The notes beneath the pieces are model-generated. The model saw nothing but the letters and a program-made list of their open reading frames with translations, was not told where the DNA came from and did not search any database. DNA of 64,000 nt, from the NCBI GenBank assembly GCA_965230945.1, contig OZ246397.1:4692-68691 (forward strand). Reading direction: 5' to 3'. This DNA comes from an uncultured Gammaproteobacteria bacterium. GTDB lineage: Bacteria; Patescibacteriota; Microgenomatia; PFEM01; JAPLYW01. Made by a program: the position numbers and the translations under genes. Below are positions 8,149 to 45,992 of the stretch, one piece after another (positions within the stretch are counted from its first letter, which is position 1; each line of letters starts with the position of its first letter).

Positions 8149-10761
8149 ATGAGCCGTTGGCAGCAGATTTGGCACAGACGCAGTTCTAGAAGAGATTATT
8201 ATTCTCGTCGAAAAAGTAAAACCAAGTCTAAATTAGTAGCTAGATTAGCTATCATTGCTTTCATTGGACTTTTGGGTTTGACTATTTTTAGTGCCGGTTT
8301 GTTTGCCTTTTATGCCAAAGATTTACCCCATCCTGACAAGGTAGTTCGTAGAGAAGGTTTTTCTACCAAAATTTATGATCGCAACGGTGAACTTTTGTAT
8401 GATATTTTTTCTGATCAAAGAAGGACGCCAGTTAAATTAGATGAGGTCCCCCAGCATTTAAAGAACGCGACTATTGCCATTGAAGATAAAAATTTCTATA
8501 GACATGGTGGCTTTGATCCAACAGGTATTTTTCGAGCTTTAACTAATATTGTCATTCGTGGTCGTCTTCAGGGAGGTTCCACCTTGACTCAGCAGTTAGT
8601 AAAAAATGTTTTACTTACCCCTCAAAGAACAGTCACTCGTAAATTAAAAGAATTTATTTTATCTATTCAAATTGAAAATCGTTATTCCAAAGACCAGATT
8701 TTGCAGATGTATCTCAACGAGGTCCCCTTTGGTGGAACGGCTTGGGGTGTTCAAGCAGCTTCGGAAACTTACTTTGATAAAAAAGTTTCCGAGTTAAACT
8801 TAATAGAATCAGCCATTCTAGCCGGTTTGCCTCAAAGACCAAGTGTTTACTCCCCTTTTAATGATGATGAAGCTTATATTGGACGAACGACCCAAGTTTT
8901 AAAAAGAATGAGAGAAGATGGTTATATTACCGCAGAGCAGGAAAAAGAGGTTTTAAATCAGCTTAAGAAGGTAGAATTTGCTTCAGAGGGGATTGGCTTT
9001 AAAGCCCCTCATTTCGTGATGTATGTTAAGCAGCAACTAGAAGAACGTTACGGACAGAGTTTAGTTGAGGGAGGCGGGTTGAAAGTAACGACAACTTTAG
9101 ATTTAGAACTCCAAGAGCAAGCCCAAGAGGCAGTCACAGAAGAAATCAAAAAAGTAGAGTATCTTCATATTACTAATGGGGCAGCTTTGGTAATTGATCC
9201 CAGTAATGGCGAAATTTTAGCGATGGTGGGATCTAAAAACTATAGTGATCCTGATTATGATGGCAAAGTTAATGTAACTTTATCTTTGCGTCAGCCGGGA
9301 TCAGCTATAAAACCTGTTACCTATGTGACGGCTCTGAAAAAGGGTTATAATGCCGCTTCTTTAATTATGGATACGGCGACGGTTTTTCCTGGTGGGACTG
9401 GTCTTCCCGACTACAAGCCAGTTAACTATGATGGTAATTTTAATGGTCCCCTGCAGGTTCGTTTTGCTTTGGGTAATTCGATTAATATGGCAGCCGTTAA
9501 AATGTTGGCCAAAGTAGGAGTTAAAGAAATGCTTAATACAGCCTATCAAATGGGTATTTCTAGTCTTAAACCTACCAATGAAAATTTGAAGCGTTTCGGT
9601 TTGTCAGTAACTTTAGGTGGGGGTGAGGTTAGGCTGTTGGAATTAACTTCTGCTTATTCGGCTTTTGCCAATGGTGGTTTAAAAGTTGAACCGATTTCCA
9701 TTTTGAAGGTTACCGATAAGGATGGTAAGGTTTTAGATGAATACAAACCGGTTACTGGTAAAAAGGTTTTAACTCGAGAAGAGGCCTTTTTAATTTCTCA
9801 TATTCTTTCTGATAACAATGCCCGCTTAATTACTTTTGGTGAACGTAGTGCTTTGGTGATTAGTAACAGAACTGTGGCTGTAAAGACAGGAACAACTAAT
9901 GATAAGCGTGATAATTGGACTATTGGTTGGACACCACAAGTAGTCGTCGCTGTTTGGGTAGGTAATAATGACAATAGCCCTATGAAACAGGTTTCTTCTG
10001 GGGTATCTGGAGCAGCTCCTATTTGGCGTAGAATTATAGAGGCGGCCCTAAAAGGTAAATCTAATATTGGTTTTATTGTTCCCGAGGGAATTGTAACAGC
10101 TGAAGTTGATCAAGTTTCAGGGTATAGAGCCCATGATGGCTTTCCTTCCCGGGTTGAGTATTTTATAAAAGGGACAGAGCCGCAAGGAGAAGATCCAATC
10201 CATACCGAACTTAAGCTTTGTCGAGGTCAAGAAAAGCTGGCTACTTTAGCTCAAATCGCTCGGGGTGAATACGAAGAAAAAGAATACTTTGTTTTTAAGG
10301 AAGAAGATCCTATATCGACTGATGGTGTTAATCGTTGGCAACAAGGCATTGATGAATGGTTATCTACCCAAGGTGATTCTCGTTATCATTCTCCGACAGA
10401 ATACTGCGGTTCAATAGATGAAATTGAGGTAAGAATTGATGAGCCAGCTCATGAAAGCCAAATTGATAACAATGAAGTGAGAGTTAAAGGTAAAATTATT
10501 GCTACTAATAATATTACCAAGATAGAGATTCTGATTGACGGAGAGGTGAAAGAGATAATTGAGAACAGTAGGAAGTTCGACAAAATCTTTAATCTTACTG
10601 ACGGTACTTATTTTGTTGAAGTTAAAGCTTATGATGATCAGGGTAACCAAGGGGAAAGAGGTGCCAGAATTGGCGTTAATGTCCCTTGGAATTGGGAGGA
10701 ACCAACTCCAACACCCTCCCCCACTCTCACTCTAACTCCTACACCTAACATAACACCGTAG
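8149..10761 (+). CDS. class A penicillin-binding protein (glycosyltransferase + transpeptidase) with extra C-terminal domain and Pro/Thr tail
   Basis: GT51 motifs (EDKNFYRHGG, RKLKE) and transpeptidase motifs (SAIKP, SLN-like, KTGTT). Ends in PTPTPSPTLTLTPTPNITP. Confidence 0.85.
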   Translation: MSRWQQIWHRRSSRRDYYSRRKSKTKSKLVARLAIIAFIGLLGLTIFSAGLFAFYAKDLPHPDKVVRREGFSTKIYDRNGELLYDIFSDQRRTPVKLDEVPQHLKNATIAIEDKNFYRHGGFDPTGIFRALTNIVIRGRLQGGSTLTQQLVKNVLLTPQRTVTRKLKEFILSIQIENRYSKDQILQMYLNEVPFGGTAWGVQAASETYFDKKVSELNLIESAILAGLPQRPSVYSPFNDDEAYIGRTTQVLKRMREDGYITAEQEKEVLNQLKKVEFASEGIGFKAPHFVMYVKQQLEERYGQSLVEGGGLKVTTTLDLELQEQAQEAVTEEIKKVEYLHITNGAALVIDPSNGEILAMVGSKNYSDPDYDGKVNVTLSLRQPGSAIKPVTYVTALKKGYNAASLIMDTATVFPGGTGLPDYKPVNYDGNFNGPLQVRFALGNSINMAAVKMLAKVGVKEMLNTAYQMGISSLKPTNENLKRFGLSVTLGGGEVRLLELTSAYSAFANGGLKVEPISILKVTDKDGKVLDEYKPVTGKKVLTREEAFLISHILSDNNARLITFGERSALVISNRTVAVKTGTTNDKRDNWTIGWTPQVVVAVWVGNNDNSPMKQVSSGVSGAAPIWRRIIEAALKGKSNIGFIVPEGIVTAEVDQVSGYRAHDGFPSRVEYFIKGTEPQGEDPIHTELKLCRGQEKLATLAQIARGEYEEKEYFVFKEEDPISTDGVNRWQQGIDEWLSTQGDSRYHSPTEYCGSIDEIEVRIDEPAHESQIDNNEVRVKGKIIATNNITKIEILIDGEVKEIIENSRKFDKIFNLTDGTYFVEVKAYDDQGNQGERGARIGVNVPWNWEEPTPTPSPTLTLTPTPNITP

Positions 10762-10888
10762 AGTTTACTAAAATGTTAATAGGACCCAAAAATAGAAGTG
10801 TTAGAAAAATTTTTCTATATAAATAAACTCTTTTTGAATAAAAAACATAGAAGAAGTATAGGCGGGCGGGGCAAATGAAGTATTATGG

Positions 10889-12916
10889 TTAACTTTTCAG
10901 TTTTATTTCGAATTTATCTTTAAAAGTTTTTATTATTTTATTTCTTACCTTTTTGACTTCTTTATCTGTAAGGGTTTTTTTGTCGTCTTGATAAGTAATT
11001 CTAAAAGTGTAATTGTCCTTAAAAGAATCTACTAACTCTACGGTTTTAATAATTAAACTACTCGATTTAATTAATTCAATTAAATCATTTATAAAAACTT
11101 TTTTGTCTACAATAAAAGTTAAATCTTCAATAATGGCTGGATATTTAGGAATAGCCTTATATTCTTTAATAGAATTGGCATATTTTAGAAGTTGATTAAA
11201 TTCAATGTCTAAAATGATTATTTTTCTTTTGATATTGAATTTAGAGATAATATCTTGATTTACTTCCCCGATTATTCCCAATGGTTCTTTATTAATTATA
11301 ACTTCAGCCAATTTGTTGTGTTTAAAGATTTTTCCATAAGCTGTTTTTTCAAGTTCATAAGGTTTGAATTTATAGTTTTTAATATTTAATTCGCTTAAAA
11401 GAACTTCAAGAATTCCCTTGAGTGAGTAAAAGTCATCTTGATTGCTAGCTATAGTTAAGGTTAGGTCCTCTTTTGGAAGCCTATCCTTACTAATAGGAAG
11501 ATAGACATTGGCTAATTCAAAAACTTTAATATTTTCTTGATATTTCTGATTTTTACTAATTACCTCGAGAATTGCGGGAATTAAGGAAGGGCGCATAAGA
11601 GCCTCTTCACTTAATGGATTGGCAATTTGAATATAATCGCTACTTTCTATTTTGGTTTTTTCTAAAAGTTTTTGACTAATCATGGAATAATTATATGTTT
11701 CGTTAAAACCTAAATCTTTGAGTAAATTTTTAACTTTATCTTGCCAAACAAAAGTTTCTTTTTCTTCTTCTTGAGATATATTGCCAATAAAAAGATTATT
11801 AGGGAAGTTGTTGTAGCCATAAATACGGGCAATTTCTTCAATTAGATCTTCGGGAATATTGATATCATCATTACGCCAATGAGGTACAATAACCTCTATT
11901 TGGTTTTGTTTAATTATAGTTTTAAAGTTAAGGTCGTTAAGGATCTTTTGGCTTTCGTTAATGTCGATTTTAATACCAGTAATTTCTTGTAATTTGTTTT
12001 GTGAAAGGGTTACTTTTTTAATTTTTGGTTTGTTGGGATAAATATCAATAAGATTGCTGGCGACAGAAGCATGGCAGTTTTCTTTAAACAAATTAATAGC
12101 TCTTCTCATAGCGGGAAGGACTCCTTCAGGATCAATCCCCTTTTCGAAACGAGAAGCAGCTTCAGTTCTAAAAGAAAGTTTCTGACAGGTCTGGCGGATT
12201 TTAGCTGGATCATAGGTTTGGATGAATAACAAAACTCTTTTTGTATTTTCGTCCACCTCTGAATTAGCCCCGCCCAAAATGCCGCAAAGGTCAATAATTC
12301 TTTTGTCCCCGTCTTCAATAACAATAGTGCCTTGAGGTAGGGATCTTTTTTTACCATCAATGGTGACGATTTGTTCTTCTGATTTAGATTCTCTAAGAAT
12401 AATTTTGCTTTTTTTGATTTTATCGTAATCAAAGGTGTGCATTGGCTGTCCGAGTTCAATCATAAGGTAATTGGAAATATCAATGACATTATTCAAAGCT
12501 CTAATGCCAACTTTTTCTAGTCTTTCTTGAATAACTTTAGGTGATGGTTTGATTTTGATATTATCAAAGATAAGAGCGGTAAATCTCGGGCAAAGGGTAG
12601 CTTTAGAGATAATTACTTTTAAGGGTAGTGTTTTTTTAATACTCTTTAGATTTTCCTTATCTTCCTCTGGTTTTTTAAGTTCTGCCTTAATATTGAATCT
12701 GGGGAGAACGGCCTTTAATTCTCTGGCAATACCAAAAACGGAAAGACAATCAGGGCGATTGCTAGTTATCTCTATCTCGTAAATAGAATCTCTCCCTGAA
12801 GGAATGATTTTTTCTACTGACTGGCTACATAAAGAAAGATACTCAGCAATTTGCTTAACGGTTGCCTTGGTTTTTAAAAAGTCTCTTAGCCAGGAATCAG
12901 GAATTAAAATATTCAT
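10889..12916 (-). CDS. pheT: phenylalanine--tRNA ligase beta subunit (short form)
   Basis: B3/B4 and B5 domains. Immediately downstream of pheS. Confidence 0.8.
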   Translation of the reverse strand: MNILIPDSWLRDFLKTKATVKQIAEYLSLCSQSVEKIIPSGRDSIYEIEITSNRPDCLSVFGIARELKAVLPRFNIKAELKKPEEDKENLKSIKKTLPLKVIISKATLCPRFTALIFDNIKIKPSPKVIQERLEKVGIRALNNVIDISNYLMIELGQPMHTFDYDKIKKSKIILRESKSEEQIVTIDGKKRSLPQGTIVIEDGDKRIIDLCGILGGANSEVDENTKRVLLFIQTYDPAKIRQTCQKLSFRTEAASRFEKGIDPEGVLPAMRRAINLFKENCHASVASNLIDIYPNKPKIKKVTLSQNKLQEITGIKIDINESQKILNDLNFKTIIKQNQIEVIVPHWRNDDINIPEDLIEEIARIYGYNNFPNNLFIGNISQEEEKETFVWQDKVKNLLKDLGFNETYNYSMISQKLLEKTKIESSDYIQIANPLSEEALMRPSLIPAILEVISKNQKYQENIKVFELANVYLPISKDRLPKEDLTLTIASNQDDFYSLKGILEVLLSELNIKNYKFKPYELEKTAYGKIFKHNKLAEVIINKEPLGIIGEVNQDIISKFNIKRKIIILDIEFNQLLKYANSIKEYKAIPKYPAIIEDLTFIVDKKVFINDLIELIKSSSLIIKTVELVDSFKDNYTFRITYQDDKKTLTDKEVKKVRNKIIKTFKDKFEIKLKS

Positions 12917-34560: not shown

Positions 34561-34570
34561 AGAGTAACTT

Positions 34571-34599
34571 ATTATAACATTTAAGAAGGATTTTGTTAA
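34571..34599 (-). promoter_or_regulatory. sigma70 promoter TTAACA-N17-TATAAT on the minus strand for the tRNA-Arg/tRNA-Lys operon
   Basis: -10 ends about 10 nt before the tRNA-Arg 5' end. Confidence 0.6.
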
Positions 34600-34600
34600 T

Positions 34601-34842
34601 TAATCCTATAACTTGATTGCTCTCCTCTATTTGAATATAATTCGGGCTATCTGCTGATGTTCTTTAATAATTGAATATAAATTTAAGAGAAAGGAAAGGG
34701 AAATGAGAGAGTATCCTTTAAGGTTAATTTTGCTTGGGTCGCTGATGTCATAATTATTGTTTAAGAAACAAAAACTTCCAATAGCTGGAAGATAATAAAT
34801 TCTTTAACCTGGTGACTCAGTCCTATTTTTTTGCCTAAACCT
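34601..34842 (+). repeat. repeat element copy 1: plus-strand promoter (TTGATT-N17-TATAAT at 34613-34641), about 190-nt transcribed region, hairpin CTTCCAATAGCTGGAAG and T7 tract
   Basis: About 100 bp 5' module and about 95 bp 3' module nearly identical to 38175-38293 and 38770-38870. Confidence 0.7.
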
Positions 34843-35871: not shown

Positions 35872-36408
35872 TTACTTGTTTTTCTTTTTGTAATCTTCAA
35901 TTGCCTTTTTAATAATTTCGTAGGCTTTTTCTTTCCCACTCCATCCCTCTATTTTTATTTTTTTCTCTGGTTGTAATTCAACATAATTTTCCCAGAAGTT
36001 TTTAATTACTTTTTTGGTGTGGTTTGAAAGATCATCAAGGTCATTAATTTCCTCAAATCTTGGATCATCAGTAGGAACGGCTATTATTTTATAATCCTCT
36101 TCCTTAGAATCAATCATTCGAAGTACACCAATTGGCTTACAGGAAATAAGGCATCCAGGAAAGGTAGGAAAAGTAGATAGAACCATAATATCTAATGCAT
36201 CACCATCTTCTTTGTTATAGGTATGAGGAATAAAGCCATATTCGGCAGGATAATAAACAGCTTCGTATAAGACTCGATCTAGTCTAAAGACATGATTTTT
36301 CTTATCGTATTCATATTTATTAGTACAACCTTTGGGGATTTCAACAAAGCAGTTAACTTCAGAAGGCGGATTATTTCCTAGTGGTAGTTGGCGGACAGGG
36401 TTATCCAT
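35872..36408 (-). CDS. ppa: inorganic pyrophosphatase (family I)
   Basis: DGDALDIMVL and YNKEDGD match family I PPase signature regions. Confidence 0.85.
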   Translation of the reverse strand: MDNPVRQLPLGNNPPSEVNCFVEIPKGCTNKYEYDKKNHVFRLDRVLYEAVYYPAEYGFIPHTYNKEDGDALDIMVLSTFPTFPGCLISCKPIGVLRMIDSKEEDYKIIAVPTDDPRFEEINDLDDLSNHTKKVIKNFWENYVELQPEKKIKIEGWSGKEKAYEIIKKAIEDYKKKNK

Positions 36409-36491
36409 AACAGATTTATTTTAGACAATTTTGTTTCCTAAATGCAAGTTTTAAGTTGATTTTTAAGAGATATTTAAATAAAATTAATTAA

Positions 36492-36941
36492 ATGATGTCT
36501 TCTAATAAGAAAAAAGGCTTTCTGTGTTCTCATTGTCATCAATTTATTTCTATAGATAGTTTTATTGGTACTCAGTTTCGTAATCACTGCCCTTTCTGTC
36601 TATGGTCAAGGCATGTTGATTTTAGAAAATTAGGTGACAGGCAATCACAGTGTCAAGGAGAAATGGGACCAATAGGGCTAACTTTTAAGCATGAAGGTTA
36701 TGATAAGTATGGCAAGCCGAAACAAGGAGAATTGATGGTTGTTCATCAATGTCTTGCCTGTGGTAGTTTTTCTATTAACAGAATTGCCGCTGATGATGAT
36801 CCAGAAGTAATTTTAAAACTCTTTAATGAATCTTGTAATATTACAGATGAATTAAAGAACAGATTAGAAGAAGAAGGAATAGATCTTCTTGCAGAGAAAG
36901 ATAAAAAGGAAATAGAAACTCAACTTTTTGGCAAAAGATAA
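36492..36941 (+). CDS. RNHCP-domain zinc-ribbon protein
   Basis: Contains the literal FRNHCPFC motif and CxxC pairs (CSHC, CLAC). Confidence 0.6.
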   Translation: MMSSNKKKGFLCSHCHQFISIDSFIGTQFRNHCPFCLWSRHVDFRKLGDRQSQCQGEMGPIGLTFKHEGYDKYGKPKQGELMVVHQCLACGSFSINRIAADDDPEVILKLFNESCNITDELKNRLEEEGIDLLAEKDKKEIETQLFGKR

Positions 36942-37065
36942 TTAAACTACAGTTTCTTATCCTATAATTTGACTTCCCAGTACTGTTTTGTTAAGATTTA
37001 TCTTAAGAAAAATAATTGGCACTTTAAAATAAAATTTTTAATAAATTTAATTAAAGGAGAAGAAG

Positions 37066-37320
37066 ATGTTTGATATTGATGGTAAAAATGAAGAGGAGGT
37101 TAAAGAAGGGGTTAAAGAGCATGCTAAGGTAGCTTATTTTTCCTTGGGAATATTTGGCTGTGTTTTTTTAAGTGCTTGTGCTTGGTCATTTCACAAGGCA
37201 TTTATTGATTTTAGTCTTTTTTTTCTCTTTGCAGCTTTGTTCTTCCTTGTAATGGGGTTTTTATGTATTGGTCTTTTGATTTCCTTCATTAAAAAAGGAA
37301 AGAAATTTAATAAGAAATAA
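37066..37320 (+). CDS. small membrane protein (84 aa, 2 TM)
   Basis: ORF with SD-like AAAGGAGAAGA upstream. Terminator hairpin ATACAA..TTGTAT + T-run follows. Confidence 0.45.
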   Translation: MFDIDGKNEEEVKEGVKEHAKVAYFSLGIFGCVFLSACAWSFHKAFIDFSLFFLFAALFFLVMGFLCIGLLISFIKKGKKFNKK

Positions 37321-37520
37321 AAAGGCGGTGGTAAATTTATCTAGAAAAGTATTTATTTTTTGGTCGATTCTTGGTTTAATTTCACCGTTTGAGAAAGAAA
37401 TACAAATTTAGCTTGTATTTTTCTTATTTTCTTATAAAAAATACCGATTCAGTATAAGTGCTCTGTTAAGGTTTCTTAATAAAAAACTTTAACGGAGTGC
37501 TTATTTTTTGCCTACTAGGA

Positions 37521-38126
37521 TTAGGATATTCCAAGTTTAGACATCACTATCGTAAAGTCGGAAGAATGATAATCGTTTTTTAATAAAACTTTTCCACTTA
37601 AGGTTTTACAGTAATTAAATATTTCTTCTGAATCTGCAAACCAAACATTGCTGTGTTGGACCGTTTTAGGTTTCGGATGTCTTCCTGCCATATTGAAGAC
37701 AAGACATTTCTTAGCATGCTGAAACATAGTTTTGATTGCTTTTTTCCGAAAACCTAAGTTATCATTATAGTTTCTATTAAGTGTTCCACAGCAAATAATA
37801 ATATCAAACTTTTCTTTCAGTGGTTGTTTAAAGTAATCACCAACTATAAATTTGTGTTTTGGATGTATTTTTTTTGCCTCCCTGATAAATTCAGGGACGA
37901 TATCTATTCCTGTATAATTGAAAACATCTGCTTTGTCTGTAATATATGGAATGATATCCCCAAATCCACAACCTACGTCGAGAATACTTTGTCTATAAAA
38001 ATTAATGTCCATGACGATTTGCTCATACCTCTGTCTTGCAGCTTTCTCCGAACACCACTTTAAAGCTCTTGGGCTAACCCCATATTTTTTATAACTATTC
38101 TGATAGCTTTTCTTTATTTTTTTCAT
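37521..38126 (-). CDS. class I SAM-dependent methyltransferase
   Basis: LDVGCGFGDI motif I. 201 aa. Confidence 0.65.
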   Translation of the reverse strand: MKKIKKSYQNSYKKYGVSPRALKWCSEKAARQRYEQIVMDINFYRQSILDVGCGFGDIIPYITDKADVFNYTGIDIVPEFIREAKKIHPKHKFIVGDYFKQPLKEKFDIIICCGTLNRNYNDNLGFRKKAIKTMFQHAKKCLVFNMAGRHPKPKTVQHSNVWFADSEEIFNYCKTLSGKVLLKNDYHSSDFTIVMSKLGIS

Positions 38127-38174
38127 CTTCAGTAATAGTATAATATATTTTTATTAATTATTAATAGTCCTGAC

Positions 38175-38870
38175 TAATCCTATAACTTGACTTCCCTACT
38201 CTGTTTGAATATAATTCGGGCTATCTGTTGTAGTTCTTTAATAATTGAATATAAATTTTTAAGTAATTTGAGAGAAAGGAAGAGGGATAGAATTGTGATA
38301 TTTCTTGTAGTTTTTTTGTTTTTAAATTAAATAGTAGGAGATAAGAAAGGATAGGTCAGGAAAAATGAGTAAAGAGAGAGAAAATTATTTTCGTGCATGG
38401 TTTGAGTAGGTAATGTTTATCTTGAGTTTAAAGATAATAGTAAAACGGGCCGTGCGAAAACACTACAACTACTGAGATTATTCGGAGGAAAATCAATATT
38501 AATTAGTGTTGATAGAAAAGAGAATGGACAGTGGCAAATAAATGTTTAAAGATTTAAGAAAGGGTAGGTGAAGGAATGCCGTTTGAGCAATTTCTTTCTA
38601 GTTGCGTTTTCGTGATCGTATTATTGATTATTGCTGGAGGTTGTTTTTTAGTCGGTTATCTTTTTCACTGTAGTCTTACAGATAACTGTAGTCTTACAGA
38701 TAAAAGAATGATAAACAAGAAAGGATAACGTGAGAGAAAGAAGCAAGAAAGATATAGAAAAGAGGACTGATGTCACACTTGTTGTTTAAGAAACAAAAAA
38801 CTTCCAATAGCTGGAAGACAATAAATTTCTTAACCTGACGACATCAGTCTCTTTTTTTGCCTATTTATCA
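38175..38870 (+). repeat. repeat element copy 2: promoter TTGACT-N17-TATAAT at 38187-38215, about 480-bp insertion, 3' hairpins and tandem U-tract terminators (38843-38885)
   Basis: 5' and 3' modules match copy 1. The 3' module is closed by ACTGATGTC...GACATCAGT and holds TTGTTTAAGAAACAA and CTTCCAATAGCTGGAAG hairpins. Confidence 0.7.
38576..38728 (+). CDS. candidate 50-aa hydrophobic peptide inside repeat copy 2 (MPFEQFLSSCVFVIVLLIIAGGCFLVGYLFHCSLTDNCSLTDKRMINKKG)
   Basis: Codons read by hand. SD-like AGGTGAAGGA before the ATG. Perfect 18-bp tandem duplication (38668-38703) encodes CSLTDN/CSLTDK. Confidence 0.3.
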   Translation: MPFEQFLSSCVFVIVLLIIAGGCFLVGYLFHCSLTDNCSLTDKRMINKKG

Positions 38871-38888
38871 GGCTTTTTTGAATCTAAG

Positions 38889-38961
38889 GGTGACTGACCG
38901 GATTCGAACCGGCAACATCCTACTCCACAGGTAGGCGCTCTACCATTGAGCTACAGCCACC
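38889..38961 (-). tRNA. tRNA-His (anticodon GTG) with genomically encoded G-1
   Basis: Acceptor GTGGCTG/CAGTCAC. Extra 5' G opposite discriminator C. Anticodon loop CTGTGGA. Confidence 0.85.
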
Positions 38962-38977
38962 ATATGTGCCCATTCTA

Positions 38978-41941
38978 TCAAAAAAAAGCTAAATAAACAA
39001 TTAAAAGCAGGATTAGGAAATAACCTAAATATTGAAGAATTTGAGGTAAAAAGATAAATATTATCTTACCTTCTGTATTTTGGTTATTTTCCCATCCATT
39101 TGCCCATCCTTTATATAAAAATGGTTTTCCTAAAGATTTAATTTTAAAATTATCTTTTATACTAAAAGCTCTCCAGTTTTTTTCAAAAGATTGATTATTA
39201 GTAATTATTTTTTCTTGAGAGAGTTTTTCTTCCTTAATAAATTGATATTCTAAAGGTGCTATTTTAATAGATTTTAATTTATTAATTGTTTTTAATGGAC
39301 CAATACCATAATTGCTTATATTGATATCATATCCTTGTCCTTCTTTGCCTATTTTAGGTATAAAAAACACATTTTGTCCATTATTTAAATCAGAATATAA
39401 GTCACAGTGTTTGGTATGATAATTAGTTAGACAGACTCTTAAAGGAAGTCCTGAGATATTTTCTGCTTCCATTATTAAGGTATAGCTTCTTTGATGAGAT
39501 AACTCAGGGAAACTAAAGGAGTCTCTTGTTTCTGCTTTTTGGGTACTATATTCTTTAGATATCTCTATATTATCAACAATCTCTGGAGCGAGTTTTTTTA
39601 AAGCTCTATAAGTGGTTGCCTTTATATCTTTTATCAAAGTTTCTTTTTCTTGATCTTGAGCATCTAAAAGAAAGCGTAATTCGTAATTTTCTATTTCTCT
39701 GTTTTTAGGGAATTGAAAAAGGTAGCTATTTTCTTCTTTTTTCCCTAAAAGACAATCATCACTCCCCCATTTTGCTAGACAAAAAGATAGTTTTTCTTCT
39801 TCATATAGAAATTCTATTTTTAGAAGAAAATTCGTAAAAGGTTTTGTTTTTAAGATGGCTTTTAGGGGTATTTTAGAACAGGCAATAGCGTTTTTTCCAA
39901 AGAGTATAAAACTATCTTTTTGAACTTCTTTAAGAGCGAAAATTTGTTTTTCTTGAGGCTGACTACAAAGACTTAACTGTGGATCAAGTCTTTCTATATC
40001 TAAGAAATATTCTCTTTTTATATTTAAATTAAAATCTTCTTTATTTATTTTTCCTATTTCTGAAGCTTTTTCTAATGCTTGTTTCTTAAGTTCTTCAGGT
40101 GGATTTTCAAAATCAATTAAGATAGGATAGTTTTGCTGATTTTCTTTAAAATTTACTTGATAAATTTTTAAATTCCCAAATTCTTTAGTTAATTTAATAT
40201 TTTCTGACAAAGATAAAAGTTTTTCTGTTTGATTAAAAAATAAGACTTTTTCGTCTTCTTTAGGAGCAATGATGTTTTTATCTAATAAAAGCCAATGAAT
40301 GTTATATTTTTGTAAAAGATTTTCTAAAAGTTCATTGTTCTGGCTATAAATAGCATATGATATTTCTTGATAAGCTTTTTCATTTTTTGGATTCCATCGA
40401 TCAAAATCTCTTACCAATAAAGATTGCTCAAGGCCAAACCAGCTAAAACCGGCTCCCTGAAAGCCCCATTTATAGTATTCCCAACCCCAAAAGGTGTGAA
40501 GTGGTAATTGGACGATTCTCCCCTTATCTTCTTGTTTATTAAGCCAGTCAGTCATTTCGAAATAAGATTGAGGAATTTTAATCCTTAAGCGAGGATTAAT
40601 AAGTTGCCCTTTAAGGGCAGGTAAAGTAAATAAAATAAGAATGATAGTAGTGATAATTGTTATTAAATAAATAATATACTTTTTCTTTAGAAAGAATTTC
40701 TTAAATCGATTAAAGATAAAACTTAATCCAAAAGCGAAAAAAACAGCATAGCTAAACATCAATATGATAGAAAACTTAGTGAAGGGAAATCTTAAAGCTT
40801 CTTTAAAAAGAGGTATTTTTTCTCTTAAAAATAAAAAAATTTGTTTAAAAGGAGTTGTAGCACTGATTAAAAAGACAAAAGCAATAAAGAATATTGGTAA
40901 TAAGGGGATAAGTTTTTTGTTTCTTTTGATTAAAGAACCAACAATTCCTAAAGTAATAATTAAAAAGCTTAAATAACCAATGGATAATATAAAAGGATTT
41001 CTTAGATGTTCAATCCAGCTTTTTAAAAGATAATCAAAGTTTTGAGTGTTGAAATTATATTGCGTCCAGCTAAATAAATGATTTTTCAAAAGAACAGTAT
41101 TTTTAATATTTCCATATTCGTAGTTATGCAAAAATGCTTCTTCTGAAAATAATCTATTTATTTTAGCTTGGATAATTTCCCCACTCTGGTGGGTAATAAA
41201 GTAAAGATTAGGTAAAAGCCAAAAAGAGTTAATTACTAATAGGATGATTATTAGAAGAAATATTCTTTTTAGATATAATAGGCGCTTTTTTTGTAAAAAA
41301 AGATAAGTTAGAAGGTAAATTAAAAAACAGCCGAAAAAGGTATACCATAAGGTAGCTGCATAAGCTTGAGGAGTACTTAAAAAAGAAATTAAAGCAAAAT
41401 AAATTAAAAGTCTTTTTTTGTTTTCTTTTAAAAATAAAGTAGAGATAAGAAAAAACCATCCTAAGGCTGCATACTGAGTGGCAAACATCTCAAAAGGAAC
41501 ATAAAAGTGCTGTATGGTTCCTAAATTAAGTAAATAAAATAATCCTCCTAAGAAAGCAAGATTCTTCTTAAATAAATAAGGTAATTTATTGAATACAATT
41601 TTTTCTAAGAAGAAATAAATTCCTAAAGGGCCTAAGACAAGGCAAATAAGAAAGTAAAAGTAACGCAGGAAATTTAAAGGAAATATAAAAGAGAACGGCC
41701 ATAAGAACAGAATTCTAGGTAAATCAGCCATATGAGAATGTCCGGCTACGGCTCCTAAACCCTGTTCATAACGCCAAACACCATTAAAAATTCTTTGTAT
41801 ATTTAAGGAAAAATTAAATTCTGGGTGAAGTGTATCCCAACCACTTAGCCAGGTATTCGGGTTGAAATTCAAAAAAAATAGTAATAAAGAAAAAGAAATT
41901 AATATTAAAGGAAAAAGATTTTTTTTAAAAAAGGAAAGCAT
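38978..41941 (-). CDS. large polytopic membrane protein, GT-C-fold glycosyltransferase-like (YfhO/ArnT-like) with about 500-aa extracytoplasmic domain and C-terminal TM
   Basis: 987 aa. More than 12 N-terminal TM helices with an Asp/Glu loop near TM1 (WDTLHPEF). Family assignment is by architecture only. Confidence 0.45.
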   Translation of the reverse strand: MLSFFKKNLFPLILISFSLLLFFLNFNPNTWLSGWDTLHPEFNFSLNIQRIFNGVWRYEQGLGAVAGHSHMADLPRILFLWPFSFIFPLNFLRYFYFLICLVLGPLGIYFFLEKIVFNKLPYLFKKNLAFLGGLFYLLNLGTIQHFYVPFEMFATQYAALGWFFLISTLFLKENKKRLLIYFALISFLSTPQAYAATLWYTFFGCFLIYLLTYLFLQKKRLLYLKRIFLLIIILLVINSFWLLPNLYFITHQSGEIIQAKINRLFSEEAFLHNYEYGNIKNTVLLKNHLFSWTQYNFNTQNFDYLLKSWIEHLRNPFILSIGYLSFLIITLGIVGSLIKRNKKLIPLLPIFFIAFVFLISATTPFKQIFLFLREKIPLFKEALRFPFTKFSIILMFSYAVFFAFGLSFIFNRFKKFFLKKKYIIYLITIITTIILILFTLPALKGQLINPRLRIKIPQSYFEMTDWLNKQEDKGRIVQLPLHTFWGWEYYKWGFQGAGFSWFGLEQSLLVRDFDRWNPKNEKAYQEISYAIYSQNNELLENLLQKYNIHWLLLDKNIIAPKEDEKVLFFNQTEKLLSLSENIKLTKEFGNLKIYQVNFKENQQNYPILIDFENPPEELKKQALEKASEIGKINKEDFNLNIKREYFLDIERLDPQLSLCSQPQEKQIFALKEVQKDSFILFGKNAIACSKIPLKAILKTKPFTNFLLKIEFLYEEEKLSFCLAKWGSDDCLLGKKEENSYLFQFPKNREIENYELRFLLDAQDQEKETLIKDIKATTYRALKKLAPEIVDNIEISKEYSTQKAETRDSFSFPELSHQRSYTLIMEAENISGLPLRVCLTNYHTKHCDLYSDLNNGQNVFFIPKIGKEGQGYDINISNYGIGPLKTINKLKSIKIAPLEYQFIKEEKLSQEKIITNNQSFEKNWRAFSIKDNFKIKSLGKPFLYKGWANGWENNQNTEGKIIFIFLPQILQYLGYFLILLLIVYLAFF

Positions 41942-43876: not shown

Positions 43877-43889
43877 ATAATTCTCCTTG

Positions 43890-44594
43890 TCAAGTTATAG
43901 GGTAGGTAATAACTAAAAGTCTTTTCCAGGCTGTTCCCGGAGGCCAGCAAGTTTGTAGAATAAGCTCCTTTTCTTTTAAATTAAGATTTTCTATTTCAGA
44001 TACATCATTAGGATTGATGATTTTTTGATTATCAACCTGATAAGAGTAGACCTTGCCCTTGTAGACCAAGACGACACGATCTCCTTTATCTAATTTTTTT
44101 AAAGAATAAAAAACGGGATTAAAGAAGTTAAGATTAAAAATAGAGTTGGTTGAATGACCAAAGACATAGATAGCTCCATCTTCATCAGGTAGACTAGAAC
44201 CTACAGCGTGAGCAGCTTTATCTTTTAAGACTTCATTGTATTCTTTCTCATTGGTGGCGTTGACGTTAGTTAAAACTTGGGTTCTAACCCCAATTTTGGG
44301 GATAATAAGCTCGAATTCGTAATCATTAGGAGATAGAACATATCTAAATTTACTTTCTATCTCGACACTGTTTTTATCTTTGTTTAATAGGTAATTCAAT
44401 TCTCCTACCATAAAAGGTAGAAAAACAAAAAATAGTCCTATTAATGGAAGAACAACAAAACTTAATTTTAGTTTATTAAAAGATTTTTTTTCAGGAGAAT
44501 AAAGATCAAAAGAACTTGCAGAATCCCCTGATTTATAAATAATTATTCCTTCATTCATAGTATAAAGTATGCCCTGTACAGTAGGACTTTTCAA
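43890..44594 (-). CDS. sortase-family transpeptidase
   Basis: N-terminal TM. Catalytic His (YVFGHS), TLxTC-type Cys motif (LILQTCWPP) and a downstream Arg. Confidence 0.7.
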   Translation of the reverse strand: MKSPTVQGILYTMNEGIIIYKSGDSASSFDLYSPEKKSFNKLKLSFVVLPLIGLFFVFLPFMVGELNYLLNKDKNSVEIESKFRYVLSPNDYEFELIIPKIGVRTQVLTNVNATNEKEYNEVLKDKAAHAVGSSLPDEDGAIYVFGHSTNSIFNLNFFNPVFYSLKKLDKGDRVVLVYKGKVYSYQVDNQKIINPNDVSEIENLNLKEKELILQTCWPPGTAWKRLLVITYPIT

Positions 44595-44616
44595 GTTTGG
44601 AGCAGGAGAAGCTTAG

Positions 44617-44690
44617 TACTCCCAGCAGGACTCGAACCTGCAACCTACTCCTTAGAAGGGAGTCGCTCTATCCGATTGAGCTATGGGAGC
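44617..44690 (-). tRNA. tRNA-Arg (anticodon TCT)
   Basis: Acceptor GCTCCCA. Anticodon loop CTTCTAA. T-arm GGTTCGAGTCC. Confidence 0.85.
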
Positions 44691-44696
44691 TTATTG

Positions 44697-44769
44697 AGCG
44701 GGGGACGAGATTCGAACTCGCGACCTTCTCCTTGGAAGGGAGACGCTCTACCAACTGGGCTACCCCCGC
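44697..44769 (-). tRNA. tRNA-Gly (anticodon TCC)
   Basis: Acceptor GCGGGGG. Anticodon loop CTTCCAA. T-loop TTCGAAT. Confidence 0.85.
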
Positions 44770-44794
44770 AAGTTAACTTAAAAGCCAAGTTTTG

Positions 44795-44869
44795 TCGGGG
44801 AGCCGGGACTCGAACCCGGGACCTCACGCTCCCAAAGCGCGCACTCTAAGCCAACTGAGCTACTCCCCG
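44795..44869 (-). tRNA. tRNA-Pro (anticodon TGG)
   Basis: C1-G72 acceptor typical of bacterial tRNA-Pro. Anticodon loop TTTGGGA. Confidence 0.8.
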
Positions 44870-44874
44870 TTTTG

Positions 44875-44960
44875 TGCCGAAGGCGGGATTCGAACCCGCA
44901 TGGTGGAATACCACCAAGAGATTTTAAGTCTCTCGCGTCTTCCAGTTCCGCCACCTCGGC
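44875..44960 (-). tRNA. tRNA-Leu (anticodon TAA)
   Basis: Long variable arm. Anticodon loop CTTAAAA. T-arm GGTTCGAATCC. Confidence 0.85.
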
Positions 44961-45085
44961 AGATGTAACTATTATATCAAAAAAAGCAATAAAAGAGGAG
45001 TGGGGAAAGAAAAATATGGAATTAAAAAAAACCACCAGATGGTCTAAAAATAAACTTAAGGGGAGGGAGAAGAAAATATAACCTT

Positions 45086-45364
45086 TCACTGCCTTTTAAA
45101 TAATTTTCTAAGGTCAGTTCTAGCTTGCTCAAGAATTTTTTTTCTTTCCATCCCGAGGTTTTTACCAGCTCGGTTGATATAAAAGTTAAGCATACTCATA
45201 GCAGATTGATAAGGAGTCCCCTTACGCCTTAAAGAATCCTCAGCCGAACGTTTAAGTGAAGCTGCAATCTTCTTCGAATTTTTCCAAGTAAATACCCCTT
45301 CTTCCAAATCAAGAGCAATGCTTTTTTTCGTTACCTCAGCCGACCAATATTTCTTTCCAGCCAT
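45086..45364 (-). CDS. DUF3175 family protein
   Basis: KKYWSAEVTKKSIALDLEEGVF...SLKRSAEDSLRRKGTPYQSAMSMLNFYINRAGKNL matches the DUF3175 pattern. Confidence 0.6.
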   Translation of the reverse strand: MAGKKYWSAEVTKKSIALDLEEGVFTWKNSKKIAASLKRSAEDSLRRKGTPYQSAMSMLNFYINRAGKNLGMERKKILEQARTDLRKLFKRQ

Positions 45365-45417
45365 ATATTTCTATTATACCTATTTTGACAACCAAGATGC
45401 GAGATTAGTCTTGTTTT

Positions 45418-45488
45418 GCTTGGGAGCCAGGATTCGAACCTGGATTAATGGGTCCAAGGCCCATTGTCCTACCATTAGACGACCCCCA
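45418..45488 (-). tRNA. tRNA-Gln (anticodon TTG)
   Basis: U1-A72 acceptor as in bacterial tRNA-Gln. 3-bp D-stem GTC/GAC. Anticodon loop CCTTGGA. Confidence 0.8.
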
Positions 45489-45557
45489 ATTATATTTTCT
45501 TAACCTATCTAAGAATCTTTTTATTTAGAAAGGAGCGTTGTTATTTTAGAATATGGG

Positions 45558-45628
45558 AGCGGGTAACGGGAATTGAACCCGTCTCTCATCCTTGGCAAGG
45601 ATGTGTAATACCGCTATACGATACCCGC
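45558..45628 (-). tRNA. tRNA-Gly (anticodon GCC)
   Basis: Acceptor GCGGGTA. Anticodon loop TTGCCAA. Discriminator U. Confidence 0.85.
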
Positions 45629-45634
45629 ATTGGG

Positions 45635-45707
45635 TGCCGAGGGGCGGAGTCGAACCGTCATCTCAGCTTTTTCAGAGCCGCGCCGTGACCACCTTGGCTA
45701 CCTCGGC
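45635..45707 (-). tRNA. tRNA-Phe (anticodon GAA)
   Basis: Acceptor GCCGAGG. Anticodon loop CTGAAAA. Confidence 0.8.
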
Positions 45708-45733
45708 AGATTTTTCTTATTCTACCATATCTG

Positions 45734-45807
45734 TGGACGAGAGAGGACTCGAACCTCTGACCTTCTCTGTGTAAGAGAGACGCTCTAACCAGCTGAGCTA
45801 CTCGTCC
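45734..45807 (-). tRNA. tRNA-Val (anticodon TAC)
   Basis: Acceptor GGACGAG. Anticodon loop CTTACAC. Confidence 0.85.
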
Positions 45808-45808
45808 T

Positions 45809-45897
45809 TGGTGCCGGGAACAGGACTCGAACCTGCACACCTATTTAAAGGTACTGCCTCCTCAAGGCAGCCTGTCTACCAATTCCAGCATCCCGGC
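45809..45897 (-). tRNA. tRNA-Leu (anticodon GAG), CCA encoded
   Basis: Long variable arm. Anticodon loop TTGAGGA. 3' ACCA present. Confidence 0.85.
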
Positions 45898-45908
45898 AGG
45901 TTTTAATG

Positions 45909-45992
45909 TGCCCTGAGAGAGAGTCGAACTCTCACGTCCTTAAGGACACTAGCTTCTGAAGCTAGCCTGTCTACCAATTCCAGCATCAGGGC
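45909..45992 (-). tRNA. tRNA-Leu (anticodon CAG)
   Basis: Long variable arm. Anticodon loop TTCAGAA. Confidence 0.85.

Follow-up and report, generated by a model that had tools for sequence, protein, structure and literature searches.

Small regulatory and accessory membrane proteins, such as AcrZ, KdpF, MgrB, MgtS, and CydX, are often cotranscribed with membrane-protein genes, have a narrow range, and are missed by annotation, and the mRNAs of type I toxins typically have structured leaders that sequester the Shine-Dalgarno (SD) sequence. Fozo et al. 2010 (PMC2887945) described type I toxins as proteins of less than ~70 aa with a predicted transmembrane (TM) segment and a polar or charged C-terminal region; their search called for a stand-alone locus, with at least 400 nt upstream and at least 250 nt downstream, and the toxin open reading frames (ORFs) were frequently, but not universally, found in tandem or in multiple copies. 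Here, we analyze a locus that encodes a 50-aa membrane protein, ORF2, at positions 38175 to 38863 of a 64,000-nt stretch of DNA (the window; contig OZ246397.1 of assembly GCA_965230945.1). The window comes from a genome of the Patescibacteria (Candidate Phyla Radiation, CPR) with a GC content of ~35%. An earlier note on this DNA had described the locus as the second copy of a repeat, enlarged by an insertion of ~480 bp and resembling a type I toxin-antitoxin (TA) locus. We consider it probable that the locus is a self-contained small-membrane-protein operon, with ORF2 as its distal gene.

ORF2 resembles the products of type I TA loci (hok/sok, ldr/rdl, ibs/sib, tisB/istR, txpA/ratA, and zorO/orzO) in being shorter than 70 aa, with one TM segment and a polar, charged C terminus, and in being encoded behind a strong promoter in an intergenic-looking region that gene callers miss and that has a patchy distribution. 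Unlike these toxins, it is encoded in related genomes by the second cistron of a bicistron, after a variable gene (ORF1); it is present in a single copy, has an unstructured leader and no similarity to any toxin family, and its sole candidate antisense promoter is of chance quality and is absent in one of three species. With AcrZ, KdpF, MgrB, MgtS, and CydX, as generally known, ORF2 shares a length of 40 to 50 aa, a single TM helix, and a tail that is short and charged. However, the lack of conservation in the neighboring ORF1 leaves ORF2 with no identifiable partner, its gene is part of a strain-variable hotspot and not of a conserved transporter or sensor operon, and there is no sequence similarity to these proteins. 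The elements of the locus in the window, several of them predicted, are as follows.

38175 to 38294, plus strand: 5' block with promoter, AT-rich leader, and SD, 83 to 85% identical to the corresponding blocks of the related loci L014 and L018
38295 to 38330, plus strand: 11-codon ORF with a GTG start (MIFLVVFLFLN), at the start position of ORF1, after the conserved SD
38338 to 38362, plus strand: first junction motif (ORF1 end/ORF2 start), GAGATAAGAAAGGATAGGTCAGGAA, matching L018 2577-2601 at 23 of 25 positions
38363 to 38552, plus strand: orphan sequence of ~190 nt, with no ORF longer than 20 aa; includes the 14-aa ORF
38365 to 38409, plus strand: 14-aa ORF with an ATG start, following the duplicated junction motif; not conserved
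38553 to 38575, plus strand: second junction motif with the SD of ORF2, AAGAAAGGGTAGGTGAAGGA, aligning with the L014 and L018 junctions just upstream of ORF2
38576 to 38728, plus strand: ORF2, 50 aa, MPFEQFLSSCVFVIVLLIIAGGCFLVGYLFHCSLTDNCSLTDKRMINKKG, with a single TM segment at residues 11 to 29
38704 to 38740, plus strand: segment AATGATAAACAAGAAAGGATAAC(G/C)TGAGAGAAA, conserved at the nucleotide level and in another frame in the window
38757 to 38863, plus strand: 3' block, a long imperfect hairpin of ~100 nt ending in T7-GCCTA
38801 to 38817, minus strand: apical hairpin CTTCCAGCTATTGGAAG followed by TTTTTTGTTT (terminator scan)
38888 to 38960, minus strand: tRNA-His (GTG), found by ARAGORN and Rfam, convergent with the cassette and at the edge of the variable locus

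The ORF2 comparisons rest on three species only: the window and those represented by L014 and L018. The L014 homolog, P0123 (40 aa, MRKMVFVIVGLIIAAGSFSFGYLFHCSLTDEKNDKQERIT), was recovered with an E value of 7.5e-5 in an exhaustive HMMER search with the 50-aa peptide against 1.84 billion proteins and with an E value of 3.4e-23 in a profile search; the latter also yielded the L018 homolog, P0125 (45 aa under genetic code table 11, MFGQFFSICVFAIVLLIIAVGCFFFGYLFHCSLTDKKNDKQERIT; E value of 1.8e-20). Proteins P0121, P0122, and P0124 were rejected as spurious, being large repeat proteins in which ~17 residues matched. Both homologs lie at the syntenic locus, after ppa (minus strand) and RNHCP (plus strand), an order that is the same in the window, L014, and L018; L014 also carries tRNA-His and a membrane protein of ~985 aa downstream of the cassette. 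In the JGI gene call of P0125 (L018 2603-2814), a TGA is read through as Trp, which results in 59 aa instead of 45; the gene caller had evidently applied an alternative genetic code to this contig, and table 11 leaves the long ORFs of the related window intact.

An SD-preceded 50-aa ORF with one TM helix, as the earlier note had it, is indeed present, with AGGTGA 4 nt upstream of the ATG. The hydrophobic segment spans 19 residues (11 to 29), has a mean Kyte-Doolittle value of 2.78 (2.19 and 3.01 in the homologs), and leads into an invariant GYLFHCSLTD at the end of the helix and then into a short charged tail. The tail is Cys rich in the window peptide, but this does not hold as a family trait, as only the single Cys of FHCSLTD is conserved and the rest comes partly from a duplication. 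Over the 26-codon core, pN/pS is 0.23 to 0.43, with the lowest values in the comparisons of the window with L018 (0.23) and L014 (0.26), and in the ten codons of GYLFHCSLTD all five variable nucleotides are at third positions. All indels are in frame: 3 nt (window versus L018) and 24 nt (L014) at the N terminus and 18 nt in the duplication of the window. Given the syntenic homologs, the low pN/pS, the third-position variation, and the frame-preserving indels, ORF2 is, to judge by its pattern of change, a genuine small membrane-protein gene under purifying selection at the protein level. It appears to represent a new family, confined to this clade and defined by the GYLFHCSLTD motif. None of the small proteins scored above the curated cutoffs of Pfam, NCBIfam, PHROGs, or PADLOC; the best family score (CRAM_rpt, 18.1 bits against a cutoff of 19.8 bits) is irrelevant. 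In tblastn searches of the window with the three ORF2 proteins, only positions 38576-38728 matched, i.e., the gene is single copy. The basic tail of the window peptide weakly favors an N-out/C-in topology, an assignment weakened by the variation of the flanking charges among the homologs.

In both relatives, the 5' block leads straight into ORF1, ORF2 comes next after 0 to 18 nt (0 nt from the end of ORF1 in L014 and 9 to 18 nt in L018), and the 3' block follows, the entire cassette extending over L014 9672-10249 and L018 2270-2885. The small membrane proteins encoded by ORF1 are 72 aa (L014) and 68 aa (L018) long and unrelated to each other. Among the ORF2-bearing species, the blocks are 80 to 89% identical, the ORF2 core is 82 to 88% identical, and the ORF1 region is only ~55% identical. 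The two short SD-preceded ORFs reported upstream of ORF2 (11 and 14 aa) both exist in the window, and neither is conserved. The 11-codon ORF shows no significant similarity to ORF1 of L014 or L018; because it occupies the same position after the conserved SD as ORF1 does there, we read it as a putative stump of ORF1. The score of the first junction motif against L018 was reached by none of 300 shuffles, and the motif also matches the L014 junction (9987-10008). No relative of the 190-nt orphan sequence was found by blastn and tblastx in any of the fetched loci or in the rest of the window. That it could be a decayed copy of ORF1 or ORF2 was rejected, since the junction motif alone matches; as far as these alignments go, no other part of the presumed insert lacks a counterpart in the orthologous cassettes.

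The perfect 18-bp tandem duplication within ORF2 was also recovered by TRF (38667-38703, 18 nt by 2.1 copies), with a score of 74 that no other repeat in the window reaches. The duplication is in frame, doubles a hexapeptide by adding NCSLTD, and is specific to the window lineage, with L014 and L018 carrying one copy of the 18-mer. The region is 100% identical, including the duplication, in three independent assemblies (JGI 3300008517, SRR3095939, and SRR3095933; L001 to L003), and the duplication is therefore not an assembly artifact; by the same identity, these assemblies are uninformative on conservation or on variation in repeat copy number. Each 18-mer unit does contain the proposed hairpin, a 5-bp inverted repeat CTGTA/TACAG. 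Because synonymous changes weaken it in L018 and break it in L014, the hairpin is probably incidental, although it could have favored slippage. A 1-nt deletion in the A-run just after the duplication, found only in the window, has changed the tail from KNDKQERIT to KRMINKKG; the AATGATAAACAAGAAAGGATAAC nucleotides are nearly identical in the window, L014, and L018 despite this reframing. The nucleotide motif of the tail is also kept in L023, in the absence of the ORF2 core. There (L023 1139-1627), an ORF1 homolog is followed by the GAAAGGATAG junction and then by an ORF that begins with MNDKQ and corresponds to the ORF2-tail motif AATGATAAACAA without the helix, which would fit a deletion of the ORF2 core.

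The 5' block has orthologs at L014 9672-9781 and L018 2265-2377, next to an unrelated ORF1 region. Its predicted promoter, TTGACT-17-TATAAT at 38187-38215 (-35 element at 38187-38192 and -10 element at 38210-38215), matches the consensus at 11 of 12 positions in a promoter scan and is followed by an AT-rich, unstructured leader of ~65 nt and by the purine-rich SD, GAGAGAAAGGAAGAGGGA, at 38270-38287. No conserved RNA fold was detected in the leader (consensus energy of about -1 kcal/mol), and a riboswitch or a thermometer was accordingly rejected; folding energies are unremarkable for either cassette copy in the window (z scores of -0.23 and -1.81 for copies 1 and 2). In Rfam 15, only tRNAs reached the gathering score, and a relaxed search of both copies gave E values of at least 0.35, far below gathering scores. 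Overlapping the -35 element is the motif CCTATAAYTTGAY, with 4 exact instances in the window (6 with at most one mismatch), against 0.39 expected. The exact instances, all of which precede genes for envelope proteins (three small membrane-protein units and a CLIPPER-domain gene encoding a sortase substrate), are as follows.

34605 to 34617, plus strand: CCTATAAYTTGAY, in the promoter of copy 1
36961 to 36973, plus strand: CCTATAAYTTGAY, in the promoter of a third, more diverged unit
38179 to 38191, plus strand: CCTATAAYTTGAY, in the promoter of copy 2
43889 to 43901, minus strand: CCTATAAYTTGAY, upstream of the CLIPPER-domain gene

This motif may mark a dedicated promoter class or serve as an operator. 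The upstream motif CCTATAACTTGAC was ruled out as a cassette boundary or recombination site, since it also precedes that ordinary surface-protein gene; it is a promoter type of this genome. The promoter pattern had no matches in the GTDB species-representative genomes, and a DNA scan of the metagenome collection with the -10/leader pattern returned just two chance matches, in a high-GC nitrate-reductase-like gene. The 987-aa protein encoded next to the cassette likewise has no relative among the GTDB species representatives, where this clade is not represented.

At the other end of the cassette, the hairpin of the 3' block (38757-38858) has the outer stem AAAAGAGGACTGATGTC/GACATCAGTCTCTTTT. 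The block is 84 to 89% identical across its four copies, all of which retain the consensus fold (34 pairs, just 2 of them compensatory), and the terminal TTTTTTGCCTA is restricted to three cassette ends within the window. We infer that this block serves as the cassette terminator. The terminator-like site formed on the minus strand by the apical hairpin, which is also present in copy 1 (34791-34775), L014, and L018, would serve the convergent transcript of tRNA-His (its L014 ortholog is at 11499-11571), and the 3' block of copy 1 sits directly downstream of a Band_7 gene, just as that of copy 2 does of the convergent tRNA-His. Each strand thus carries a predicted hairpin with a U-tract, as in bidirectional intrinsic terminators, with an A-tract upstream, a T-tract downstream, and the apical hairpin followed by a T-run on the opposite strand. 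Unlike such terminators, the cassette hairpin is unusually long (~100 nt) and imperfect, is 84 to 89% conserved as a module across paralogs and species, and persists in L018 despite a nonconvergent downstream gene. Because of this persistence and modular conservation, it may do more than terminate transcription, e.g., stabilize the mRNA. Minus-strand ORFs starting with (M)TSVLF, of 42 aa in the window (38648-38776), 70 aa in L014 (9947-10159), and 33 aa in L018 (2700-2801), were rejected as genes: they lie beyond the minus-strand terminator, lack an SD, and vary in length and frame, and they are probably by-products of the conserved outer stem.

Two further units in the window share parts of this frame.

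34601 to 34837, plus strand: cassette copy 1, with the same promoter, leader, SD, and 3' hairpin and no real payload
36955 to 37514, plus strand: a third, more diverged unit, with the promoter CCTATAATTTGACT...TAAGAT at 36961-36997 and the end TTTTTTGCCTA at 37504-37514

Copy 1 and copy 2, both on the plus strand, have in common a 5' block of 106 nt (83 to 90% identical) and a 3' block of ~98 nt (88% identical), separated by 63 nt in copy 1 versus 515 nt in copy 2. In copy 1, the promoter (TTGATT-17-TATAAT, 34613-34641) matches the consensus at 10 of 12 positions. It lies back-to-back with a divergent tRNA-Arg/tRNA-Lys promoter (TTAACA-17-TATAAT with TG, 34599 to 34571, within the region 34561-34612); the two have the common center TTAATTAA, and the arrangement is kept in L014 (7872-7925). 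The interior of copy 1 holds a single 16-aa ORF (34703-34753, MREYPLRLILLGSLMS) and, according to tblastn, no ORF2-like sequence. Copy 1 is 80 to 84% identical to copy 2, and the orthologous cassettes are 83 to 89% identical to it. Because its distance from copy 2 is about the same as that of the orthologs of other species, copy 1 is, by this measure, an old paralog without a payload and not an empty target site. At the position syntenic to copy 1, L014 and L019 carry genes for 39-aa and 104-aa membrane proteins behind the same promoter.

The third unit encodes an 84-aa protein with two TM segments (37066-37320). The ortholog of its promoter is the upstream half of the cassette promoter in L014, as L014 8591-9691 aligns with window positions 35879-36978. 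Compared with L014, the window has two additional genes, the one for this 84-aa protein and a minus-strand SAM-methyltransferase gene (37521-38126), bracketed by copies of the upstream half of the promoter (36955-36978 and 38173-38196), an arrangement that looks like an insertion accompanied by a duplication of the promoter. The methyltransferase and RNHCP proteins of the window have their closest named relatives in Patescibacteria, Microgenomates, and Shapirobacteria. Homologs of the methyltransferase in other CPR genomes are found in unrelated contexts, and the eight loci retrieved with it (L006 to L013, 66 to 77% identical) show no synteny with the window, neither of the two blocks, and no ORF2 peptide. 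Farther along the window, ten tRNA genes are clustered within 1.4 kb on the minus strand (44616-45992), and the window has 15 tRNA genes in total.

The cassette lies between RNHCP and tRNA-His, and the content of this interval differs even between close relatives. L014 and L019 have 100% identical ppa and cassette-A proteins (both of them) and a 94% identical 984-aa protein; nevertheless, L019 carries four unrelated genes (encoding 78, 74, 81, and 154 aa) from RNHCP to tRNA-His, and no ORF2. A more distant relative, L021, has yet another gene set at this locus, and in L023, a homolog of the L014 ORF1 (33 of 72 residues identical) occupies the other cassette locus and has different partners. 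Because near-identical strains carry unrelated payloads, the RNHCP/tRNA-His interval is, on this comparison, a strain-variable hotspot in which payloads are swapped and the promoter and terminator types persist. From RNHCP to the 984-aa gene (window 36492-41941), the identity between L014 and L019 drops to 84.5% in RNHCP and is 94% in the 984-aa protein, and these drops flanking the swapped payload suggest recombination breakpoints inside the flanking genes. L014 also has an insertion of ~1.2 kb between the cassette and tRNA-His (10262-11498; window counterpart 38864-38888), with a truncated duplicate of the tRNA-His 3' end at its edge (10270-10295); a fragment of the ppa 3' end (10314-10446, 89% identical) and ORFs of 55 and 119 aa lie within it, but no integrase does. 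This insertion looks like a scar of integration or recombination at tRNA-His. In its tRNA-His border, in the wholly different gene content of L014 and L019, and in the duplicated tRNA-His 3' fragment flanking the L014 insertion, the locus is similar to strain-variable tRNA-gene islets. It differs from them in having no integrase or mobility gene in or near the islet at any of the loci, and in that its payloads are only small-protein operons that reuse the same promoter and terminator types.

We propose that the near-consensus sigma-70 promoter, with its AT-rich leader and strong SD, drives a short operon for small membrane proteins, which would end at the long hairpin and T-run, with the apex of the hairpin doubling as a terminator for tRNA-His. 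In the relatives, ORF2 would be translated directly after the variable ORF1, presumably by translational coupling across the 0 to 18 nt between the stop and the start, and the product would be inserted into the membrane. In the window lineage, ORF1 appears to have been cut to 11 codons and the junction duplicated around the ~190 nt of orphan DNA; ORF2 would then have gained the in-frame 18-bp duplication by slippage and lost 1 nt, so that its last 8 to 10 residues are reframed, while retaining the helix, the conserved motif, and its own SD. Several observations weigh against this operon model. The promoter, the terminator, and translation are all predictions, and the strong conservation of the leader is something for which the model gives no account. 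Simulations of amino acid conservation under random substitution gave P = 0.006 when the window was compared with L014, whereas the other two pairs reached only 0.08 and 0.13, and with three species the selection statistics are weak. Gene callers skipped the 50-aa ORF in all three identical contigs, NCBI did not call the 40-aa ORF of the L014 homolog in GCA_964490965.1, and a patchy distribution in a tRNA-adjacent variable island would also suit toxin or defense functions. Finally, the window copy shows signs compatible with decay, namely, the lost ORF1, the frameshifted tail, and the fresh duplication.

These last signs raise the alternative that the cassette in this genome is a decaying relic, with ORF2 nonfunctional here and its family functional elsewhere. 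The several in-frame stops of the orphan sequence, the replacement of the tail shared by L014 and L018, the evolutionarily recent origin of a perfect duplication, and copy 1 as a demonstration that complete payload loss is possible would all fit. Yet the start, the SD, the N terminus (MPFEQFLSSC versus MFGQFFSIC in L018), the TM helix, and GYLFHCSLTD are intact in ORF2, the duplication preserves the frame, the replacement tail has stayed short and basic, the promoter still matches at 11 of 12 positions, and it is the window comparisons that have the lowest pN/pS, so we regard a relic as possible but unlikely. The unit might instead be a gene for a noncoding small RNA, with copy 1 as its 190-nt minimal form and the ORFs of copy 2 as incidental: each copy has its own promoter and terminator-like hairpin, copy 1 lacks a long ORF, the blocks are more conserved than most of the interior, and the segment after ORF2 is conserved in its nucleotides whatever the frame. 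The protein-type substitutions and in-frame indels of ORF2 are at odds with such a gene, as are the unremarkable folding scores, the lack of conserved structure in the leader, the scarcity of compensatory pairs in the 3' hairpin, and the lack of an Rfam match at either the gathering or the relaxed threshold, all of which makes it very unlikely. As for the claim of the earlier note that copy 2 is copy 1 plus ~480 bp of a mobile element or foreign DNA, the extra sequence is indeed confined to copy 2 within the window, and the ~190 nt without relatives between two 25-nt junction motifs could be an insertion or duplication scar. However, the blocks in L014 and L018 enclose both ORF1 and ORF2. A cassette thus normally carries a payload, most of the 480 bp is wrongly read as an insertion, and just the ~190 nt at 38363-38552 are truly extra; the distance between copy 1 and copy 2, similar to that between copy 2 and the orthologs, also speaks against this polarity. 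The block ends (TAATCCTATAAC... and ...TTTTTTTGCCTA), as read from the sequence, are not inverted repeats and have no flanking direct repeat. A miniature inverted-repeat transposable element or other mobile insertion was rejected, there being no terminal inverted repeats or target-site duplication and both copies lying at loci orthologous to L014 cassettes. Searches of phage and plasmid records and three scans of viral contigs found no relevant similarity (the match to viral contig L027, with 58% GC, is due to chance). An insertion of the whole segment is hardly credible.

The remaining alternative to the operon with an ordinary membrane protein as its distal product would make ORF2 the toxin of a type I or type I-like TA system or of an abortive-infection module, i.e., a small pore-forming or membrane-depolarizing peptide silenced by antisense RNA. 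With one TM segment in 50 aa and a polar tail (FHCSLTDNCSLTDKRMINKKG in the window and FHCSLTD(E/K)KNDKQERIT in the homologs), ORF2 conforms to the toxin descriptors of PMC2887945. A strong promoter with a strong SD would need counteraction if the product were toxic, and a variable island beside a tRNA gene, missing from a near-identical strain, is where accessory toxin modules often reside. The source of the antisense RNA would be read-through of tRNA-His or a promoter at the 3' end of the ORF; a site with 9 of 12 matches lies there at equivalent positions in the window (38776 to 38749) and L018 (2801 to 2774). That site is absent from L014, however, and is of a quality expected by chance (3.0 ± 1.8 per region); a sequence scan found no antisense terminator. 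ORF2 is no stand-alone locus, as it follows ORF1 by 0 to 18 nt in the relatives, where it is the distal cistron, and precedes tRNA-His by 160 nt in the window; it is not multicopy, and copy 1 lacks it. Nor does it match, via Pfam, NCBIfam, PHROGs, or PADLOC, any of the described toxin families (Hok, Ldr/Fst, TisB, Ibs, ShoB, TxpA/BsrG, and others), the PADLOC search being empty. The 5' leader is unstructured, and the window lineage tolerates both the hexapeptide duplication and the reframed tail. Overall, we consider a type I toxin quite unlikely. Still more speculatively, the promoter-leader and the terminator hairpin could be bookends of exchangeable cassettes in this CPR clade, whose payloads of small envelope proteins would be swapped among loci and among strains by homologous recombination within the bookends, with ORF2 as one half of a toxin/immunity or phage-exclusion pair and the hypervariable ORF1 as the other. 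We hold this to be decidedly unlikely; if true, the protein would be varying adaptively at its cytoplasmic end through the 18-bp duplication and the reframed tail. Our best guess is that ORF2 belongs to the flexible genome as an accessory protein of the envelope and is not a toxin.

For annotation, the type I toxin label is unproven for ORF2 and should be kept out. Small membrane proteins of this kind are systematically missed: three pipelines skipped the ORF in the window, and NCBI skipped its homolog in L014. ORF2 itself adds a small-protein family of a known general kind, and the organization of the cassettes and of the hotspot is the more interesting by-product of this analysis. Members of the CPR/Patescibacteria live attached to host cells, and the envelope is central to their biology. 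Near-identical strains that carry different genes for small envelope proteins behind one promoter type therefore provide a testable handle on strain-level variation of the envelope.

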